A stretch of 8,328 nt of DNA from Promethearchaeota archaeon. Lineage in GTDB: Archaea > Asgardarchaeota > Thorarchaeia > Thorarchaeales > Thorarchaeaceae. The stretch's first letter is position 1. Each line of letters opens with the position of its first letter. Shown here in pieces: positions 1 to 8,328 of the stretch. The notes under the pieces are model-generated. The model saw only the letters and a program-made list of their open reading frames with translations. It did not search any database and had not been told where the DNA came from. Location: NCBI GenBank assembly GCA_027031765.1, contig JALVPN010000219.1, positions 1 through 8,328 on the forward strand, read 5' to 3'. Both the position numbers and the translations under genes were made by a program.

Positions 1-1197
1 GACATGGAGCTGACATTCACAGTTGCGACCTTTGGCGGACGGATGCTGGTCGACATGGCACACCACTCCAGCGATGACCCTGACGACCCGTCAAGCTACC
101 GGTACTTTGCCGAGTACCTCCGTGAGAACGGGGTCACGATGGGCACCTTTGGAGACCCGAATGACATTGCGCAGAGGCGCTTCGACCGGGCCACACTGGG
201 GACGTGTGAGGCCCTGCTGATAATGGACACCGAGACCAATTACGGGGAGAGTGAGATTGCAGCATTCCACGACTTCGTCAGAGATGGTGGTACTCTCCTT
301 GTGATGTCCGAGTACTATGACAACCGCAGCAACACTGCGAGCTTCGGGATAGATGCGTACAACAAGATACTGGAGCCATTTGGCATCCAGTGTGAACGGT
401 TCACCGTTGGCGGGTACCCGGAGGAGAACATGGGACATGTCTACGGTGCAGACCATGGGGGTGCGGTAGACGACGACCCGCTGACGGAAGGGGTGCGGAA
501 CATCTACGTGCTCCTCGGCAGTGCATTCACCGTCGACCCGTCCAGGGCACACGGACTGTTGTGGTATGATGCCGCCAGACAACACGCACTTGTGGCCACG
601 GCCCGCTACGGTCAGGGGCGTGTCATAGCAGTATCTGACGGCTCGACCCTGTATGACGACATCCTCTACGACGCAATCCGCAACGGGGCCGACAACCTCG
701 CGCTGCTGCACAACATAGCATCACTTGTGATACCGGAGGCCCCAAGGATATACGAGGTGCAGACCAAGTTCGACAGGATAGGCCAGCCCGGGAACGTGAC
801 GGCCTGGGTCTTTGACGATGACCTGAGCAACGTCACAATCACAGTGACCACACCCAGCGGCCAGAACATCACTTCCCCGGTAGTGGAGCGGCTTGGTTAC
901 GAGTTCATGCTCGACTTCCCAGTGGACACGGGTGGCTTCTACGTCGTCACAGTGCGGGCGACCGATGCGGCTGGGCACACGAAGGAGGTACGGGAAACAG
1001 TGCTCGTGCCTGTCCCGGCCGTGGACGATGTGTTCACCATGAGCGTGCTCGGGTCGCTCCTAGTGGTGGTGGTCGCCGGACTCGCATACGTCGGCTGCAA
1101 GCGGTTCAGACGGCCCATGGGAGGCCGTGAGGAAGAGGTCGAGTGGGAGCCGGTTTGGGACGACAGTGGACAGACGCCCCCACCAGTCATCGAATAG
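1..1197 (+). CDS. 5'-truncated type I membrane protein: GldG/IFT52-like (DUF4350, class I GATase-like fold) domain, Ig-like domain, C-terminal TM helix and acidic tail; probably the C-terminal part of an S1P/SKI-1-like S8 protease
   Basis: The ORF track gives 4..1197, but codon 1-3 (GAC) is in frame with no stop, so the gene probably starts upstream. Motifs: RMLVDMAHH, YFAEYLRENG, LLIMDTETNYGESEIAAFHDFVRDGGTLLVMSE, YGQGRVIAVSD. A beta-rich segment follows (VTAWVFDDDLSNVTITVTTPSG ... YVVTVRATDAAG). Hydrophobic helix VFTMSVLGSLLVVVVAGLAYVGC (1030-1098) is followed by KRFRR. Four N-x-S/T sequons lie in the ectodomain. Stop TAG at 1195-1197. Confidence 0.85.
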   Translation, partial: DMELTFTVATFGGRMLVDMAHHSSDDPDDPSSYRYFAEYLRENGVTMGTFGDPNDIAQRRFDRATLGTCEALLIMDTETNYGESEIAAFHDFVRDGGTLLVMSEYYDNRSNTASFGIDAYNKILEPFGIQCERFTVGGYPEENMGHVYGADHGGAVDDDPLTEGVRNIYVLLGSAFTVDPSRAHGLLWYDAARQHALVATARYGQGRVIAVSDGSTLYDDILYDAIRNGADNLALLHNIASLVIPEAPRIYEVQTKFDRIGQPGNVTAWVFDDDLSNVTITVTTPSGQNITSPVVERLGYEFMLDFPVDTGGFYVVTVRATDAAGHTKEVRETVLVPVPAVDDVFTMSVLGSLLVVVVAGLAYVGCKRFRRPMGGREEEVEWEPVWDDSGQTPPPVIE

Positions 1198-2470
1198 GCC
1201 CGTAGGTCTGTTCCAGCAGGCGCCTGATCCGGTCATGCACCGGGTCCAGCAGCGGGGCCTGCTCCAAGGTCACACCAGCAAGGACGCGCTTGTAGAGCTG
1301 AAGGCCTACGACAGACGCCATGCGGCTTGCAATGACCTGACCGCCCACGAGACGGCCCTCCTTTGTGGTCACAAGGGCGACCTTGGTCATCTCCGCAGTG
1401 TCCTCGATGACCTCAACGTCCGTTTCCACTCCGAGGGACGCAGCAACTGTTGACGAGTAGCCGACACACAGGACATCAGTCTCGAAGACCCTGTCATACT
1501 GGAGGCGCAGGGATACGTCCCTGAACCGTTTCCGACGGCCGAGCGCAGCAACAGCTGCCTGTCTGCCACCGCGTGCTGCGGCACTGGCCACAGGCAGGAG
1601 CACCGGCTTGCCGGTCAGTGCGTCCGGTATCTCTGCACAGTCACCCACTGCAAACACGTTCTCAACAGATGTGCGCATCTGCTCGTCAACCAGCACACCG
1701 CCAGCAGGGCCGAGCTCGAGGCCCAGTTCCTTGGCAAGTGCAGTGTTAGGCCTCAGGCCGGTGACACAGAGCACCGCATCAACATCGAGGTCGTCACCAC
1801 CCACCACCACGCACCGGGCCTGCTCCTCACCCACGATTGCCTCGGGGCTCCTCCCAAGGTGGAGGTGCACACGTGGTGCCACTCTTGCTGCGAGGTCCTC
1901 GCTCAGGGGCACCTCGAGTAGTCTTCGCATCAGCCGTGAGCGGACGACCAGGTGCACAGTCTTGCCCATCCTCTTGAGGCGCTCGGCCATCTCGAGGCCG
2001 ATATAGCCGGCACCAATCACTGCGACTGTCGACACATGGGCAAGGTACTCGCCGGCCCTGGAGGCGTCACGGATGTCCCTTATCGTGAACACACCGTCCA
2101 GGTCCACGCCCGGGATAGGTGGCAGTGCTGGCACTCCCCCGAGGGCAAGGATCAGACGGTCGTACTCCTCGACGAAAGTACTACCGTTAGGGGCACGACA
2201 GTCGAGGCGGTTGTCCTCCACGCTGCCCCCAACAACGGTCACACCTGTCTTCACCTTGATGCCAGCCCCTGCGAGTGTCTGGAGCGACCACTGGGGTACT
2301 GTGAGCTCTTTGGGCCAAGGCGACTCTAGGGCCATTGCCACACCCGGGCGTCTGTGAGCATCGTGTGTCTCATCGGTGAGGACAGCCACTTCCGCGGACT
2401 TGTCAAAGGTCTTCGCTGTGAAGGCCGCGGCAGCGCCCCCTGGGCCATAGCCGACAACTACAATCTTCAA
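1187..2470 (-). CDS. FAD-dependent pyridine nucleotide-disulfide oxidoreductase family protein (CoA-disulfide reductase/NADH oxidase-like, redox Cys absent)
   Basis: N-terminal FAD motif KIVVVGYGPGG, LILALGG, NAD(P)H motif VIGAGYIGLEMAE, GLRPNT, second FAD motif TSVENVFAVGDC, and a shortened dimerisation domain. The TTG start (2468-2470) is required to keep the GxGxxG motif and overlaps the upstream TGA stop. Confidence 0.93.
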   Translation of the reverse strand: MKIVVVGYGPGGAAAAFTAKTFDKSAEVAVLTDETHDAHRRPGVAMALESPWPKELTVPQWSLQTLAGAGIKVKTGVTVVGGSVEDNRLDCRAPNGSTFVEEYDRLILALGGVPALPPIPGVDLDGVFTIRDIRDASRAGEYLAHVSTVAVIGAGYIGLEMAERLKRMGKTVHLVVRSRLMRRLLEVPLSEDLAARVAPRVHLHLGRSPEAIVGEEQARCVVVGGDDLDVDAVLCVTGLRPNTALAKELGLELGPAGGVLVDEQMRTSVENVFAVGDCAEIPDALTGKPVLLPVASAAARGGRQAAVAALGRRKRFRDVSLRLQYDRVFETDVLCVGYSSTVAASLGVETDVEVIEDTAEMTKVALVTTKEGRLVGGQVIASRMASVVGLQLYKRVLAGVTLEQAPLLDPVHDRIRRLLEQTYGPIR

Positions 2471-5400
2471 TTCCTGAGACCCCCGCGCATCTTGAGGAGG
2501 ACAACAACCACTACTACCGCCACGGCACCCACACCGATGACAATGAGAGGTGTCGTGTCCTCAACGACTGCAATCGAGCCAGCATAGGCCTCGATAACGT
2601 TACCATAAAGGCTTACCGCGACTGCATAGACATCATACTCACCTGGCGCGAACCCGGACAGCGTGACAGAGAAGTTGTACACTCCACGGCTACCCGACAG
2701 TGTGAGGTTCACACACACACCATAGTCGGACTTCAAAGACAGGTACACCTGGTCAACTAGCAGGTAGCCGTCGAGCACGACGTGGCCCGACAGGACGCCG
2801 GGGCTCCACAGGCCCAGCACCACTGTGTCTTGGTCAAGGGTCACATTGCGGAATGCGATGTTGGCCGACATGCCGGCAGAGAGGACTACCGGTGGCAGCA
2901 CCAGCGCCCCCACACCATCGCTCACGTTGAGACAGAGCCATGTGATGCCAGACTGCCCGGATGGCAGCTCAAGTCGTAGCGAGAGAGCGCGACCACTGAC
3001 TGTACTGGTGTTGAGGAGCTGGTAGTCCGTAGAGACCAGGCCCCATCCCCACTGGAGGTCACTACTGGGTGTGTCACGGTCGTAGGCCTCCGCATAGATG
3101 TCCACAGCACTGCCCTCCTCGGTCAACTGCAGGCGCTGGACCCACGGGTGCCAGGTACATACGACGTCAACGTACCCGGTGGTGTCGTAGTCGGACACAT
3201 TCCCTGATACCATCGTGACAGATAGGCGCCCGAGCCCGGACGCTTCCGGACGCTCTGTGGTGACCAGAACCGTCTTGGCCCCAGTAGTCACAGACACCTG
3301 CATGGTGGATGGCTGGTAGGTGGTGTCATCCCACACGTATGCTGTTGACGTGCCGTCTGTGACATTCACCATGATGTCAGCGCCTCCAGCCCCGGTCTCC
3401 AGACTCTTGTCGGTGTCCCACCTGATGGAGAGGGTCCTACCGGTCAGTCCAGGCGGGCCTGCAAACGCCACGATAACACTGAGCGTGTCGAGCTCTGCAT
3501 ATGTGTGGACGCTGAGGATGTCCACGGCAGGGGAGATACCGGGGTCGTGCGGGTCGTCAATGACGCCGCCGATGCCGGTCCACTCGTGGACGGCAGTGAC
3601 ATTCGTCAGTGACCTGTTGAGCGAGTACTGTACGGCGAGAGGGGCGTCCACACGGCCGTAGCCCCACGACTGCGAGGGTGTCGAGTAGTGGGCCACCATG
3701 CCACCCGCAGACTGCACGAGGGCACTGTAGTCGGCCCACGGGTCCCTGCGACCGGATGCCTGCCGGACGAGTGCCAGTACTCCAGCGACATGCGGGGCTG
3801 CCATGCTTGTGCCTGCGCGTGTCCGCCACAACGACGTTGTTGACGGAGCGGCAGCCGTGATTGTCGAGCCGGGGGCCGCCACTTCAGGCTTGGGAAAACC
3901 ATCGACACGTGGCCCGCGGCTGGAGGAGGACAGGAACTCGCCATCAGTGTCGACGAAGGCACTCACGCAGACACCGTAGTCCGCAGTACCAGGGGAGCTT
4001 ATTGTGTGTGTCATGTCGAGGTGGTCTGTCAGACGCAAGAGCGAGGAGCTCCAGTCGCCGTCCCAGGCGTAGACGTCGACGGTCACAGGGGGGCCGGATG
4101 GGTTGTCGACCTCAATGGCCCACATCCCCGAGTCAATGTGCTGTTGTGGTTCTGAGAGCTGGACGACGAGCCTGTTGGTGCCGCGTGCACTCACATCTGC
4201 AAACAGCGAGACGTTCAGTACCGGCTCCTCCACGTATGCTGCTGAGCCCACAATGGACTCAAAGGGGCCGAAGGTAACGGCCTCGCCCGAGGGCGGCCTG
4301 AATATGATGGACTCGTCACGGTCAGTGCTGCGCCACAGGATGTTGATGTAGGAGTAGACGGGAGGGTTGCTGACCGAGAGGCCCACCGTGCCGGACTGGC
4401 CCGCGGCCACTGTCAGGCGTGCGTGCTTGCTCCGTCCGCCAAGGTTTCCGGCTGCAAGCGATGACAGAGTGCCGTTCGCAATGAAGGCCCTACTGGTGGC
4501 CAGGTCCTCGGGGTCAGTACCGTCGAGGAAGCCCAAGTAGCTTGAGAAACTCATGTTGATGATATCAGCATCCTGTTCTATAGCGAAACTGATACCGTCG
4601 AGTACGTCAGCCGAGTCAAGTCCACTCTGGACTACAATCAGATCCGCACCCGGGGCCACACCAACACGCTGTGTGAAACCGGGCTGGCCGCCTACAATCG
4701 TCGATGCCACGTGCGTCCCATGACCGTGGTAGTCAGTGACAGAAAGTGCCTCTGTCAGGTTCACCCCGCGGACGTAGACCTTCTGCCCCATCTGGTCGTA
4801 TAGTACTGCCACCTTGGACTCGCCAAGGACGACGACATCATCGTCAGGGAGCGTTACAGTGCCGTCCCCGTTGCCGTCGATACCACCCAGCCACCTGTCA
4901 CCATCGGTGAACGTGAAATGCCCATCGCCCCCCACATCAATGAACATGTAGTCCGAACTCAGGTCGTAGTTGTGGCCTGGCTGGTGCAGCACTGTCGCGA
5001 CCGGGCCCTCGTTGTCGTCAGCATACCCGTCACGGTCGAGGTCAACATAGAACGCCCCGTCGGAGAGGAGCACATCGAAGGGACCGGCACTCCGACGCCA
5101 GAAGGAGGGGTGCAACCAGTCGACGCCCGTGTCCAGTACTGCGACCCGGACTCCATAACCATCGATTGCCTGGCCATCAACGTGAAGACTATGCCACACC
5201 TGGTCAGCACCTGTCCAAGGTACGGACTCCACCAGCGAGGGGTAGAACTTCTTGCTGCCCGAGAATGCCCGCAGCAGGCCGAGCTGTTCCAGACGGTGGA
5301 CAGACGCCGCAGAACGTACCGATGCCAAGTACAGTTCTCCGACACGGACGGGCGTCCCGTGCCGGTAGCGCAGGTCAACACCGAGGCGGGCAACAGTAGC

Positions 5401-5658
5401 CAGCTCGGTCCGTGAGAGTACGTGGTCGAACTGCAGGAGCGCACGACAGCCACCAGAGGAGGCGAGCGAGTACCTGCCATTCAGAGTGCTCAGCTCGTGG
5501 AGGAGCATCGGCTCAACAGTCCGTGATGTCATGACGTGTGAGAGGGCAGGTACGAGTGGTTGTTCCCCTATTGCAGCACTGCTGGCCACAGCCGTTCCAC
5601 GGGTCACCATGGACATAGGTGCCAGCAGGATGATCAGTACTATGATGACGCGTCGCAT
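2467..5658 (-). CDS. Secreted, C-terminally membrane-anchored S8 family serine peptidase (subtilase, CspA-like with interrupted catalytic domain)
   Basis: Signal peptide MRRVIIVLIILLAPMSM. Catalytic D176 (VAVLDTG, 5131-5133), H313 (HGTHVA, 4720-4722), oxyanion N405 (AAGN, 4444-4446), S618 (GTSMAAPHVAG, 3805-3807), plus SSRGP...KPEVAAPG and WGYGRVD. Beta-sandwich domains follow. TM helix at 2494-2550 is followed by KMR. About 13 N-x-S/T sequons. SD-like AGGTG lies 5 nt before the ATG. Confidence 0.95.
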   Translation of the reverse strand: MRRVIIVLIILLAPMSMVTRGTAVASSAAIGEQPLVPALSHVMTSRTVEPMLLHELSTLNGRYSLASSGGCRALLQFDHVLSRTELATVARLGVDLRYRHGTPVRVGELYLASVRSAASVHRLEQLGLLRAFSGSKKFYPSLVESVPWTGADQVWHSLHVDGQAIDGYGVRVAVLDTGVDWLHPSFWRRSAGPFDVLLSDGAFYVDLDRDGYADDNEGPVATVLHQPGHNYDLSSDYMFIDVGGDGHFTFTDGDRWLGGIDGNGDGTVTLPDDDVVVLGESKVAVLYDQMGQKVYVRGVNLTEALSVTDYHGHGTHVASTIVGGQPGFTQRVGVAPGADLIVVQSGLDSADVLDGISFAIEQDADIINMSFSSYLGFLDGTDPEDLATSRAFIANGTLSSLAAGNLGGRSKHARLTVAAGQSGTVGLSVSNPPVYSYINILWRSTDRDESIIFRPPSGEAVTFGPFESIVGSAAYVEEPVLNVSLFADVSARGTNRLVVQLSEPQQHIDSGMWAIEVDNPSGPPVTVDVYAWDGDWSSSLLRLTDHLDMTHTISSPGTADYGVCVSAFVDTDGEFLSSSSRGPRVDGFPKPEVAAPGSTITAAAPSTTSLWRTRAGTSMAAPHVAGVLALVRQASGRRDPWADYSALVQSAGGMVAHYSTPSQSWGYGRVDAPLAVQYSLNRSLTNVTAVHEWTGIGGVIDDPHDPGISPAVDILSVHTYAELDTLSVIVAFAGPPGLTGRTLSIRWDTDKSLETGAGGADIMVNVTDGTSTAYVWDDTTYQPSTMQVSVTTGAKTVLVTTERPEASGLGRLSVTMVSGNVSDYDTTGYVDVVCTWHPWVQRLQLTEEGSAVDIYAEAYDRDTPSSDLQWGWGLVSTDYQLLNTSTVSGRALSLRLELPSGQSGITWLCLNVSDGVGALVLPPVVLSAGMSANIAFRNVTLDQDTVVLGLWSPGVLSGHVVLDGYLLVDQVYLSLKSDYGVCVNLTLSGSRGVYNFSVTLSGFAPGEYDVYAVAVSLYGNVIEAYAGSIAVVEDTTPLIVIGVGAVAVVVVVVLLKMRGGLRN

Positions 5659-5703: not shown

Positions 5704-5712
5704 CTTTTCAAG
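5704..5712 (-). promoter_or_regulatory. Possible weak TATA box (CTTGAAAAG) for the peptidase-oxidoreductase operon
   Basis: This is the only AT-rich patch near the gene, about 45-55 nt upstream of ATG 5658. It overlaps a TCAA-G-TTGA inverted repeat (5708-5716). It is an imperfect match to the archaeal TTTAWA consensus. Confidence 0.3.
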
Positions 5713-5881
5713 TTGACTGGTGACACACCCGCTGTAGCAGTGTCGCGCTATGCTGCGGAGCCCTACGGAGACTGCGGGCAGTCAGGCCGTCATAACAATA
5801 CCGCAGCCCATATGCTGGCACGAGTGTTGGTAGATGGTGCCGGACCCTCTGTGCACACTTACTAGGGGGCCAACTGGCCAG

Positions 5882-5956
5882 ATGGGACGTGAACGGACTG
5901 CACGACCAGACTGGCGTAGTCCAAGGATACTGCACTGGACCCATGTGCGTCCCCAT
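5882..5956 (+). other. Potential structured RNA/DNA element in the divergent intergenic region
   Basis: Closing stem ATGGGACGTG (5882-5891) pairs with TGCGTCCC(C)AT (5946-5956). Inner hairpin GGACTGC (5895-5901) pairs with GTAGTCC (5916-5922). Paired by eye; strand and function unknown. Confidence 0.25.
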
Positions 5957-5987
5957 GTTCAGGACATAGGGCGACCGCGTCGTACAC

Positions 5988-6000
5988 TGAGCTTTTAATA
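5988..6000 (+). promoter_or_regulatory. Archaeal TATA-box promoter motif (TGAGCTTTTAATA) upstream of the TPR-longin gene
   Basis: AT-rich TTTTAATA in a GC-rich background. Matches the motif at 8139-8151 at 11 of 13 positions. The reverse complement (TATTAAAAG) could also serve the minus strand. Confidence 0.55.
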
Positions 6001-6078
6001 GCGTCGGCAGGGAGATGGATACGTCCTCAAGTGATGCAATGGCAACACTGTGAACCTGTTGGCCCCAGCAGTGCGTCT

Positions 6079-6082
6079 GGAG
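6079..6082 (+). promoter_or_regulatory. Ribosome-binding site (GGAG) of the TPR-longin gene
   Basis: GGAG lies 4 nt before GTG 6087 and 10 nt before the in-frame ATG 6093. Confidence 0.4.
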
Positions 6083-6086
6083 ATGT

Positions 6087-8111
6087 GTGCAGATGGACAA
6101 AGGGTTTGTGCCGCCCGAGTTCAGACACCTCGTGAATGAGAGTGGCGTCCCATGGGAGAGACTTGCTGAGGAAACTGAGAAGAGAGTGGCAAGTGGTAAG
6201 AGCGAGTTCGAGGCGTTCACAGATGCTGCAATAGACATTGCGTCCAGAGAGTGTATGGGTGAGAGGCCTGATGTTGCTGTGCTCCGCCTCGGCATGGAAG
6301 CAGCACTGAACAGGGGACGGCTGGCAGAGGCACTGTTCATCTCGACAGACACGGACGAGGTCGCAGTCCAGAGCCTACGAGGGATTGCCCTGTTCGTCCT
6401 CTCTGACGTGGACGGGCTGCGCAAGGTGCTCAGGGCCATAGAGCAGAAGGTGGACGACGACTCCCCGCCCGCCGACAGGGTCAGGCTCAGCACCGTGAAG
6501 ATATACCTGGGTGCCCTTGAACGTGACACCAGCACCATAATCTGCGTCATGGAGTTCGATAGCCTCCTTGAGGAATACCCCGAGCAGGTGGAACAGCCCC
6601 TCATCGAAACAATGTTCACACTCTACGTCATCGGCTCACTCCTCCGAGAGATTGGGGAGGCAGCACGGGCGACCCGGATTGCCGACACGCTGGAGGACAT
6701 GGCAAGGAGCAGGGGGCACAGGATGATGCTCGGGCTTGTCGAGAACCTGCGTGGCAATACCTGCAACCTGCAGGGGAAGTTCGATGAGGCCGAGGAACAC
6801 TACCTCAGGTTTCAGTGTATCAGCGAGGAGCTCTCCTTCGAGCTGGGCGCCGGAATTGCACTGAACAACCTTGGTACGCTCAAGCTGAACTCCCTGAAAC
6901 TGGAGGAGGCGCTTAGACTCTTCGAACAGGCGTACAGCGTCATGAACATGGCAAGGGCAAAGGTCAACGCACTGGCGAACATAGGCGAGATCAATACTCT
7001 CCTAGGCAGGTACGAGGATGCAGAGCGGGCACTCAGGGAGGCCATCACGCTAGAGAAGAAGACGCAGACCGACACGATTGAGGTGTATGCATGGTATGCA
7101 ATCCTGTTGGCAAGGACAGGGCGGACGCTGGAGGCCAAGAGATACCTGAAACATGCGAAGGAGATAGCCGACCGCACCGAGAGACCGCTCCAACGCGGTG
7201 TATACTGTCTGACAGAGGGCACAGTGCTGGTTGCCGAGGGCGACCTCTCAGGTGCGCTCGCCTGCTTCGAACATGCAGTACGCATTGGGAAGGAGAGTGA
7301 TGTCTTTGAAACGCTCGTACGCGGAAAGCTTGAACTGGCACGCACGCACCTAATGGCGTACCTGAGTGGTGGGGGCGACAAGCACCTGTCCAGCGCAGCG
7401 TACCACCTCAACGACCTCATCCAGATAGCGCAGGAACAGGGCCTCCAAGCGCTACATGCAGAAGTGCTACTGCTGAGGAGCGACATCTTCCGGCTGGACG
7501 ACAAGGTGCCGGAGGCGGAAGGTGACCTGAACAGGGCCCTCAGTATAGCGTCGTTCTTGCAGGACGACAGGCTGAAGACAGAGGCGACGGAACGGCTCCA
7601 TGCCTTGACGGTAACACCCACCGGTAGCAGCACGTTCGAACACCAGGTCGCTACAAGGTCGATGGACAGGGTCTCAGCGTTCAGGCCCGCACGCGGACCC
7701 ATCGTGGTCCCACAGCCAGAGCTGTACACACTGATTGCGGTCGACCGGGACTCCGGACTGCCAGAGTTCGTATACAGCTTCAACGAGGAGATGACCGTGG
7801 ACAGCTCGATAGTGAGCGGCTTCATATCTGCAATCAGCAGTTTCTCCAGCACCCTCATGGCCGGGACGGGTATGCTGCGTTCTGTCAACCATGAGGGCTT
7901 CGTGCTGATACTGGAGCACACACGCTCAAGGATTGTCGTGCTTGTCGCCAGCAAGGAGACCTTCGAGACACGGTACAGACTCAGGGACTTTGCGGCCAAG
8001 TTTGAAGAGAGGTACCCGGAGCGAGTGGGGAGTGGTGGTGTGGACACCAAGAAGTATGCCGACGCCGCGGAGCTAGTGGCCAGTGTGTTCGGTGCTGACA
8101 ACAAGGACTGA
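6087..8111 (+). CDS. Tetratricopeptide-repeat protein with C-terminal longin-like domain (Asgard-type eukaryotic signature protein)
   Basis: Tandem ~40-42-aa TPR units at ~6620-7610 (e.g. NLRGNTCNLQGKFDEAEEHY, NNLGTLKLNSLKLEEALRLFEQA, ANIGEINTLLGRYEDAERALREA). The C-terminal ~129 aa (7722-8108) show a longin-type beta-beta-alpha-beta-beta-beta-alpha-alpha pattern: LIAVDRDSGLPEFVYSF ... SIVSGFISAISSFS ... LRSVNHEGFVLILE ... IVVLV ... RYRLRDFAAKFEERY. No signal peptide or TM helix. The start may be ATG 6093. Confidence 0.9.
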   Translation: MQMDKGFVPPEFRHLVNESGVPWERLAEETEKRVASGKSEFEAFTDAAIDIASRECMGERPDVAVLRLGMEAALNRGRLAEALFISTDTDEVAVQSLRGIALFVLSDVDGLRKVLRAIEQKVDDDSPPADRVRLSTVKIYLGALERDTSTIICVMEFDSLLEEYPEQVEQPLIETMFTLYVIGSLLREIGEAARATRIADTLEDMARSRGHRMMLGLVENLRGNTCNLQGKFDEAEEHYLRFQCISEELSFELGAGIALNNLGTLKLNSLKLEEALRLFEQAYSVMNMARAKVNALANIGEINTLLGRYEDAERALREAITLEKKTQTDTIEVYAWYAILLARTGRTLEAKRYLKHAKEIADRTERPLQRGVYCLTEGTVLVAEGDLSGALACFEHAVRIGKESDVFETLVRGKLELARTHLMAYLSGGGDKHLSSAAYHLNDLIQIAQEQGLQALHAEVLLLRSDIFRLDDKVPEAEGDLNRALSIASFLQDDRLKTEATERLHALTVTPTGSSTFEHQVATRSMDRVSAFRPARGPIVVPQPELYTLIAVDRDSGLPEFVYSFNEEMTVDSSIVSGFISAISSFSSTLMAGTGMLRSVNHEGFVLILEHTRSRIVVLVASKETFETRYRLRDFAAKFEERYPERVGSGGVDTKKYADAAELVASVFGADNKD

Positions 8112-8138: not shown

Positions 8139-8151
8139 TGAGCTTATATTA
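8139..8151 (+). promoter_or_regulatory. Archaeal TATA-box promoter motif (TGAGCTTATATTA) upstream of the GTPase-like gene
   Basis: TTATATTA at 8144-8151, about 40 nt before ATG 8191, matching the 5988-6000 motif at 11 of 13 positions. Confidence 0.6.
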
Positions 8152-8182: not shown

Positions 8183-8194
8183 ATGGGACTATGA
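8183..8194 (+). other. Minimal upstream ORF (M-G-L-stop) whose stop overlaps the next start codon (ATGA)
   Basis: ATG GGA CTA TGA. The SD-like GGTGA (8171-8175) is 7 nt before ATG 8183. The TGA at 8192-8194 overlaps ATG 8191. Confidence 0.3.
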
Positions 8195-8328
8195 CTTCAA
8201 TAGATGAGGTGCGGAGGATTCTCCGGGTAGGCGAGACCCGCAACCGGGAGTTCAAGCGCAAGCTCACCAGAGCCGACCTGAGGCCAGAGAGACGCCAGAG
8301 GCTTGTGTCGAGGATACGGTACATGACC
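8191..8328 (+). CDS. 3'-truncated protein with N-terminal AlbA_2/Schlafen-like domain, probably an archaeal GTPBP1/2-family translational GTPase
   Basis: Not in the ORF track (46 codons, open at the window edge): MTSIDEVRRILRVGETRNREFKRKLTRADLRPERRQRLVSRIRYMT. GE..N.EFK.KL and R..RLVS.I.Y resemble the GTPBP1/2 N-terminus (recalled pattern EGN.EYK.KL ... R.E.LVTQMK.R). An in-frame stop at 8173-8175 fixes the start, and a TATA box lies upstream. Confidence 0.75.
   Translation, partial: MTSIDEVRRILRVGETRNREFKRKLTRADLRPERRQRLVSRIRYMT

Follow-up and report, generated by a model that had tools for sequence, protein, structure and literature searches.

The 8328-bp stretch analyzed here (the window) is an entire contig, JALVPN010000219.1 of assembly GCA_027031765.1 (G000:C219), from a Promethearchaeota archaeon of the Thorarchaeia whose genome measures 2.95 Mb and is 95% complete. 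A gene on its forward strand encodes a protein that joins a long α-solenoid of tetratricopeptide repeats (TPR), through a short linker, to a single C-terminal domain with the predicted fold of a longin domain. We call it the TPR-longin protein. It is an architectural variant within the known expansion of longin domains in Asgard archaea. The parts of the gene and its product, in residues (aa) of the protein, are as follows.

6093–8111, forward strand: coding sequence of the TPR-longin protein, 672 aa from the ATG at 6093; the listed open reading frame (ORF) begins with the GTG at 6087.
6114–6650, forward strand: N-terminal helical region, aa 10–188, specific to the orthologue group (AlphaFold2 (AF2) model, alignment).
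6651–7676, forward strand: TPR solenoid, aa 189–530, approximately nine hairpins, LGN/Pins-like (Pfam, AF2, Foldseek).
7677–7721, forward strand: linker, aa 531–545, predicted coil (AF2, alignment).
7722–8090, forward strand: longin-fold domain, aa 546–668 (123 aa; AF2, Foldseek, VIA-align and Pfam longin matches in relatives), with the elements β1 546–553, β2 559–564, α1 573–589, β3 599–602, β4 605–611, β5 615–621, α2 626–642 and α3 654–668.
7866–7898, forward strand: predicted dimer-interface strand, aa 594–604, signature L-R-S-x-N-H-E-G (homodimer model, conservation).

The ORF at 6087–8111 of the forward strand is free of stop codons and translates into 674 aa. Sequence comparison confirms that it is a real gene and not a chance reading frame. 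Full-length orthologues form at least 70 clusters at approximately 50% identity, with source names of Thorarchaeota, the Asgard lineage, and an exhaustive HMMER search with aa 535–674 (E≤1e-3) found the C-terminal domain in 293 representatives. The gene likely starts at the ATG at 6093 and not at the GTG at 6087, because the database gene call (P0002) is 672 aa long and the orthologues align from the second codon pair.

The full-length AF2 model was built on 23 orthologues and has a mean predicted local distance difference test score (pLDDT) of 87 and a predicted template modeling score (pTM) of 0.84. It shows 28 helices between aa 10 and 530, a coil at 531–545 and a single α/β domain at 546–668. 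The preliminary description, made from the sequence alone, had proposed an N-terminal helical region, a TPR array, a short linker and a C-terminal domain of approximately 129 aa, and the model reproduces this layout within a few residues. The N-terminal helical region (aa 10–188) has no Pfam match, yet the most conserved block of the protein, aa ~145–186, lies inside it. The orthologue profile aligns to paralogues only from aa ~180–240 onward.

The identity of the next region as a TPR solenoid, also proposed earlier, is borne out by Pfam, AF2 and Foldseek: curated profile matches and a solenoid of helical hairpins are both present. The Pfam matches span aa ~185–490 and lie above their cut-offs, with TPR_12 at 62.5 bits (cut-off 30.1), TPR_1 at 56.9, TPR_2 at 55.7 and TPR_MalT at 51.6 (cut-off 45), in addition to TPR_8. 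In Foldseek, the solenoid matches LGN, OGT, Ski3 and the TPR subunits of APC. The top matches are LGN/Pins structures (PDB IDs: 3sf4, 4g2v and 6hc2; E~3e-6; TM score by target 0.56–0.63), and an N-N-L-G motif is found at aa 260–263. A conserved D-R-x-x-x-F-[KR]-P motif (aa 527–534) marks the end of the last helix and lies mostly within the TPR part, before the linker. NCBIfam gave partial matches only, and these fall on the TPR portions of regulators such as AfsR and MalT. Neither Pfam nor NCBIfam found a DNA-binding, kinase, receiver or NTPase domain in the protein, or a P-loop NTPase (NB-ARC/AAA) N-terminal to the TPR array. We considered and rejected a STAND/MalT-type TPR sensor; only the TPR part of MalT/AfsR aligns, and there is no match to an NTPase family.

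The C-terminal domain was also folded on its own with AF2, using an alignment of 78 segments from relatives of aa 535–674. The resulting model has a pLDDT of 88 and a pTM of 0.83. In the numbering of the isolated domain, DSSP assigns strands to residues 12–19, 25–30, 65–68, 71–77 and 81–87 and helices to 39–56, 92–108 and 120–134. Both AF2 models have the topology β-β-α-β-β-β-α-α, with no helix ahead of β1 and two helices at the C-terminus. The top ranks of a Foldseek search of the PDB are occupied by Fuzzy (of the CPLANE complex), Bet5, AP-2 sigma, Mon1 and Ccz1. VIA-align, a structure search independent of Foldseek, placed the first longin domain (LD1) of Fuzzy first (7q3d_C, Z 12.6, 124 residues aligned, root-mean-square deviation (rmsd) 3.1), followed at Z 11.4–11.8 by Sec22, VAMP7, Mon1 (Z 11.6), Bet5 and AP-3 mu. 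The longin matches cover residues ~11–140 of the isolated domain, both C-terminal helices included, whereas matches to roadblock/MglB structures (Z 8–11) cover residues ~8–112 only. The longin-like fold suggested in the preliminary description is thus found again in the models and both structure searches, and PAS, GAF and profilin folds are absent from the top 50 of either list. We conclude from the models that the domain has a longin fold. A roadblock/LC7/MglB identity was considered and rejected: β1 is preceded by the coil at 531–545 and not by a helix, and there is no Robl_LC7 match. The protein was likewise rejected as a tri-longin subunit of a Rab guanine nucleotide exchange factor (RabGEF) of the kind seen in Mon1-Ccz1, Fuzzy-Inturned and HPS1-HPS4; it has one α/β domain, and the remaining chain is helical.

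At the sequence level, the link to longins runs through relatives. The C-terminal 145 aa alone match no Pfam family, and neither they nor the whole protein reach the cut-off of Fuz_longin_1 (PF19036, 26.1 bits). Among the 78 domain relatives, Fuz_longin_1 is matched by ten (best E 1.1e-6), Intu_longin_1 by seven, Sybindin and Longin by two each, and Robl_LC7, weakly, by four. A paralogue of 208 aa encoded in the same genome (contig C11) passes Fuz_longin_1 with 27.9–28.6 bits and is a clear member of the domain family (E 4e-12 against the domain profile). The homology to Fuz_longin_1 appears transitive and not direct, because the relatives and the C11 paralogue match the family while the protein itself does not.

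Longin subunits of GTPase-activating proteins (GAPs), namely FLCN, NPRL2 and SMCR8, carry a G-P motif just before β2 and a nearby arginine finger (PMC12290439). In the present domain, the β1–β2 loop holds G557-L-P559, which is one residue longer than G-P; G is found in 73/78 and P in 38/78 members of the family. The sole arginine nearby is R615 in the β4–β5 turn, which is R in 16 and W in 7 of the 23 orthologues and R in 17 of the 78 family members; the finger position was mapped without a structure. From these sequences, a GAP active site of the FLCN/NPRL2/SMCR8 type is not convincingly present.

When two copies of the domain were modeled together, the homodimer reached a median score of 0.47, as against 0.13 for the best control. 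This score clears the mark of the method; in calibration, 20 of 30 proteins whose solved structure is a pair of one chain attained it, as did 1 of 23 whose solved structure is a single chain. The runs share at least 93% of their contacts, and the pLDDT of the partner is at least 72. The predicted interface comprises aa 586, 590 and 594–604, that is, the end of helix α1 and strand β3, in an antiparallel arrangement symmetric about residue 600. The LRSxNHEG strand is the most conserved strand of the family, and 7 of 13 interface residues are invariant in the 23 orthologues compared with 13 of the other 122 residues of the domain (Fisher p 5e-4). Edge-strand pairing of this kind is the mode of roadblock and longin dimers, and pairing through β3 and α1 is the LD1–LD1 mode of heterodimers of the Mon1/Fuzzy type. 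The modeling suggests that the domain most likely pairs through the edge strand β3 and helix α1. Heterodimers with paralogues would be just as plausible as homodimers.

The domain belongs to a large family. In the genome of origin, 24 ORFs match the domain profile at E≤0.01 and approximately 22 at E≤1e-5. They include stand-alone forms of ~110–130 aa and a second TPR-longin protein of 662 aa (contig C181), whose gene directly follows a same-strand ORF of 1448 aa without a Pfam match (L059, G000:C181:18784–25312). The flanking ORFs scanned there also include an MFS/ATG22-like transporter, which is uninformative. Three further contigs (C27, C52 and C145) encode fusions of the domain to TrmB/HTH_47 winged-helix domains, which suggests that these proteins are longin-domain transcription regulators. 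On C27 (G000:C27:7255–9541; L013, L018), two genes adjoin each other with the longin-like domain first in each, and the second also has a TrmB-type winged helix. An Arf/Ras-type GTPase is fused to a longin-like domain (aa 240–369) in G000:C207:2–1567 (L025); this gene is cut at the contig start and has ~150 further residues of unclear nature. The same genome has 25 Ras-family and 15 Roadblock matches. Two predicted proteins, P0076 (701 aa) and P0112 (2810 aa), each contain eight or nine separate stretches that match the β2–α1 part of the domain; they could be repeat proteins assembled from a piece of a longin, or the matches could be low-complexity noise, and P0076 also has scattered odd short Pfam matches.

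A fold search of the ESM Atlas found the domain in Asgard proteins together with HTH_47, V4R and Arf/Ras domains, the Arf/Ras fusion cluster alone comprising 376 Asgard proteins. Beyond Asgard, the matches were response regulators of Thermoplasmatota and bacterial OmpA/BON proteins.

Among near relatives of the domain, TPR-longin is the commonest architecture: 66 of the 149 nearest representatives align contiguously well into the TPR region of the orthologue profile. The novelty of this exact architecture, which the preliminary description had marked as in need of checking, was overestimated. Source names of the TPR-longin relatives include Heimdallarchaeota, Hodarchaeota, 'Candidatus Harpocratesius' and 'Asgard group', and, judged by alignment, the build is not unique and is spread over Asgard archaea of the Thor, Heimdall, Hod and Harpocratesius types. 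With longer proteins from Baldr-, Odin- and Hodarchaeales, the domain is all that is shared. Strict orthologues, defined by the conserved N-terminal 240 aa, occur in 15 of the 16 genera of the same taxonomic family. They are patchy within genera (9/28 genomes of g8, 4/17 of g12, 0/3 of g3) and were not found outside the family among 151 genomes of the phylum. Databases name these proteins 'tetratricopeptide repeat protein' or 'hypothetical' only. None of the texts searched names the architecture.

The remaining features of the window are listed here.

1–1197, forward strand: DUF4350 protein, 3′ part, with the 5′ part cut off (Pfam).
1187–2470, opposite strand: pyridine-nucleotide-disulfide oxidoreductase (Pfam); its ends overlap both neighbors.
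2467–5658, opposite strand, upstream of the TPR-longin gene: S8 subtilase, 1063 aa (Pfam).
5993–6000, forward strand: TATA-like TTTTAATA, ~92 nt upstream of the ATG at 6093; putative promoter, picked out by eye.
8144–8151, forward strand: TATA-like TTATATTA, 40 nt before the ATG of the GTPase gene; putative separate promoter, picked out by eye.
8191–8328, forward strand: initial 46 codons of a translational GTPase of the GTPBP1 family, whose gene is interrupted where the contig stops; the remainder lies at G000:C102:12157–13800 on the reverse strand.

In orthologous loci, the counterpart of the DUF4350 protein is a protein of ~965 aa with a Peptidase_S8 domain, and two of three loci also show a faint DUF4350 match. 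The PmbA/TldD pair of several orthologous loci (for example L029 and L030) is missing in the window and in L031. Two ORFs of the reverse strand have no family match: that at 5708–6619 (303 aa) overlaps part of the start of the TPR-longin gene, and that at 6812–8104 (430 aa) is antisense to it. Both are most likely artefactual, non-coding frames held open by a G+C content of 58–60%. The whole window has no match in Rfam at the gathering threshold. In PADLOC, the only matches were to generic models, several for TPR and one for subtilases, with no defense system indicated.

The two contig ends of the split GTPase gene overlap over residues ~6–46. The full-length orthologue P0221 has GTP_EFTU, D2 and D3 domains. 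We assign the neighbor by sequence to the GTPBP1 family of translational GTPases because P0221 is a closer match to human GTPBP1 (E 3e-56) than to archaeal EF1A (aEF1A; 2e-23). Ahead of the G domain lies an N-terminal extension of ~120 aa with no Pfam match. A conserved protein of ~560 aa converges on the GTPase gene (L029–L031 at 11.7–13.4 kb; G000:C102:10416–12155); it has no match in Pfam or NCBIfam and is present in the Thorarchaeota loci examined in which the GTPase is present.

What the TPR-longin protein does has to be read from its architecture, its fold, its superfamily-level membership and the conservation of the interface strand. The reading that we prefer, and to which we give about an even chance, is a dimeric scaffold or GTPase-platform adaptor that brings a TPR ligand together with a small GTPase or a longin/roadblock partner. 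The ~530 residues of α-solenoid, that is, the orthologue-specific helical N-terminus followed by the LGN-like TPR array, would form a cytoplasmic scaffold whose TPR groove presents a binding surface for a peptide or protein ligand. The single longin domain would pair either with another copy of itself or with a paralogous longin domain, of which the genome has ~24, and the pair would provide a two-longin platform on which a Ras-superfamily GTPase could dock. In this way, the TPR-bound ligand would be joined with one of the ~25 small GTPases of the genome or with another longin or roadblock partner. Two-longin platforms that dock Ras-superfamily GTPases are described for TRAPP, Mon1-Ccz1 and Fuzzy-Inturned, and for bacterial MglB (PMC10933270). 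Small GTPases are favored as the class of partner because GTPase–longin fusions exist in the same domain family (C207 and the Atlas cluster). From the model we infer dimerization; the binding of a GTPase by the platform and any role in trafficking would be further steps, and the 'proto-trafficking adaptor' of the preliminary description is a role drawn from domain identities.

Several results weigh against this reading. We found no partner of the protein, and no link to a small GTPase, a roadblock partner, a cargo or a membrane. There is no small-GTPase gene at this locus (Pfam on the main ORFs of the window, precomputed Pfam on the orthologous loci), none adjacent to four paralogous TPR-longin loci of other Asgard lineages, and none among those flanking ORFs of the paralogue on C181 that were scanned. 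The four distant loci share no recurrent neighbor, and one of them has a Robl_LC7 gene 3.6 kb away. The gene is dispensable, a strict orthologue being found in only 44 of the 86 genomes of the family. The protein itself matches no longin model in Pfam, and its domain profile gave no significant match among PDB sequences, the best being Bet5 (7ea3_D, E 0.34). The pass of the dimer model may echo what the predictor has learned from solved longin and roadblock dimers, and its alignment was self-built. Finally, the domain is also fused to winged-helix and receiver domains, which fits a generic role in dimerization or sensing equally well. This last point leads to an alternative that we regard as rather unlikely but as a real contender: a regulatory scaffold independent of small GTPases, in which the longin-like domain would serve for dimerization or ligand sensing, much as GAF or PAS domains do, and the TPR would bind a regulatory target, for example a factor of transcription or of proteolysis. 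It would be in keeping with the winged-helix fusions of the genome (C27, C52 and C145), with the HTH_47, response-regulator and OmpA/BON proteins of the Atlas search, with the match of the TPR region to MalT/AfsR-type regulators, and with Asgard fusions of longins to two-component signaling domains (Liu et al., bioRxiv 10.1101/2020.10.19.343400). The protein, however, carries no DNA-binding, kinase, receiver or NTPase domain of its own; every structural neighbor of the longin domain is the longin of a GTPase platform, a SNARE or an adaptor, and the top 50 include neither PAS nor GAF; and the family includes GTPase–longin fusions.

The genomic neighborhood offers two other explanations. The protein might be a partner of the GTPBP1-like GTPase with which it would be co-expressed, its longin dimer or TPR docking or regulating this EF1A-family GTPase in translation surveillance. 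The longin domain of SRX binds SR-beta, which is a loose precedent for such a pairing. The GTPase gene begins 79 bp past the TPR-longin stop codon on the same strand; it follows directly in three public Thorarchaeota loci, and the two genes lie side by side in the same direction, ~3–150 bp apart, in 27 of the 29 genomes of the family that allowed their relative placement. This adjacency is not specific to the pair, as synteny extends over the whole block (S8 peptidases, PmbA/TldD, TPR-longin, GTPBP1, uncharacterized proteins of 559 and 158 aa, MGMT and others). At least five genomes have the GTPase gene next to PmbA/TldD or S8 genes and no TPR-longin gene at the syntenic site. Conversely, in genus g14 the TPR-longin gene is found in 7/7 genomes and the GTPase in 0/7 (three of the seven are at least 91% complete), which suggests that this lineage has lost a translational GTPase otherwise widely conserved in Asgard archaea. 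Two g14 genomes (G143:C1 and G161:C5; loci L055 and L057) and one g10 genome were examined, and in all three the block is otherwise intact and keeps the TPR-longin gene while the GTPase is absent from it; in the g10 genome, GTPBP1 is located elsewhere. GTPBP1 homologues with 50–58% identity are found in many other Asgard families, with no strict TPR-longin orthologue in the genomes searched there. Because the whole block is syntenic, each gene has been lost independently, GTPBP1 is common without the TPR-longin gene and a TATA-like element separates the two, we regard the functional link as weak and the pair as conserved synteny with independent loss. We consider such a partnership quite unlikely. 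Less probable still, to the point of being scarcely credible, is a cytosolic adaptor for the divergently encoded S8 subtilases in a module of regulated proteolysis or sorting. Two S8 peptidase genes and the pyridine-nucleotide oxidoreductase gene do lie upstream on the opposite strand and are conserved in orthologous loci. Their transcription is divergent, though, synteny is the sole tie between longin/TPR and proteases, and the peptidase or PmbA/TldD genes stay beside GTPBP1 in genomes without the TPR-longin gene (L035–L042); as is largely seen already, presence does not co-vary across genomes.

Longin and roadblock platforms and small GTPases are central to models in which eukaryotic trafficking arose from Asgard components, and hardly any longin protein of Asgard archaea has been given a partner. 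The present analysis defines a large family, so far named only 'TPR protein' and distributed over Thor-, Heimdall-, Hod- and Loki-type lineages, in which a peptide-binding solenoid and a longin domain are built into one chain. The TPR-longin protein is a soluble, well-modeled experimental target, and R598, H602, E603 and the TPR groove offer handles. Synteny, and not co-inheritance, ties it to its GTPBP1-like neighbor. Should the function prove to be ordinary scaffolding, the result is still a useful annotation and no breakthrough.

Compared with known systems, the domain is remotely homologous to, and would work like, the first longin domain of GEF subunits of the Mon1/Fuzzy type and the longins of TRAPP, and the protein itself stands outside those families. 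LD1 of Fuzzy/Mon1/HPS1 (PF19036) is the best structural match and the Pfam family most often matched by the domain relatives. The TPR-longin protein differs in having one longin domain and not three, a fused TPR solenoid of ~530 aa and no direct PF19036 match; neither a Rab partner nor GEF activity is on record for it. The resemblance to Bet5/TRAPPC1 and Trs23/TRAPPC4 of TRAPP (the Sybindin family) includes a structural match to Bet5 (3cue_C, Z 11.6, rmsd 2.7); Bet5 is also the only, weak match of the sequence profile in the PDB, and Sybindin is the family matched by two of the 78 relatives. TRAPP longins are stand-alone proteins flanked by Bet3-type subunits, whereas here the domain forms the C-terminus of a TPR protein, and Pfam finds no Bet3/V4R domain in it or in the other main ORFs of the window. 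For the solenoid, the best Foldseek matches are the TPR scaffolds LGN/Pins, with which it shares the N-N-L-G motif. LGN, in contrast, has GoLoco motifs and no longin domain, and the similarity is at the level of the repeat and silent on the ligand.

The combination of an α-solenoid of ~550 aa with a longin domain of ~130 aa recalls the half-complexes of AP and COPI, in which a large α-solenoid subunit is joined by a sigma/mu-N or zeta/delta longin subunit. Comparison of the longin model with AP-3 mu, AP-2 sigma and the longin chain in the core structure of beta/delta-COPI (5mu7_B) gives Z 9.6–11.4. In the adaptors, however, solenoid and longin belong to different chains, and the former is HEAT-like and not TPR, so that the resemblance is architectural only; Pfam searches of the protein and the domain relatives found no sequence homology to adaptins or Clat_adaptor_s. 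By analogy, a single-chain solenoid and longin that dimerizes through its longin domains might be a one-gene counterpart of the solenoid–longin half-complexes of AP, COPI and TSET, which we hold to be very improbable. Were it true, a fused or homodimeric solenoid–longin module, possibly the ancestor of adaptor cores, would already have been present across Asgard archaea. The protein also belongs to the Asgard expansion of longin and roadblock domains with its domain shuffling, which is well documented (Liu et al., bioRxiv 10.1101/2020.10.19.343400; Tran et al., PMC10933270). In the archaeon MK-D1, the genes for GTPases, roadblock and longin proteins have no operon link (Tran et al., PMC10933270), and the TPR-longin loci are likewise without an adjacent small GTPase. 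With its many lineage-specific paralogues, shuffled partners and GTPase–longin fusions, this expansion is matched by the ~24 copies of the domain in the present genome.

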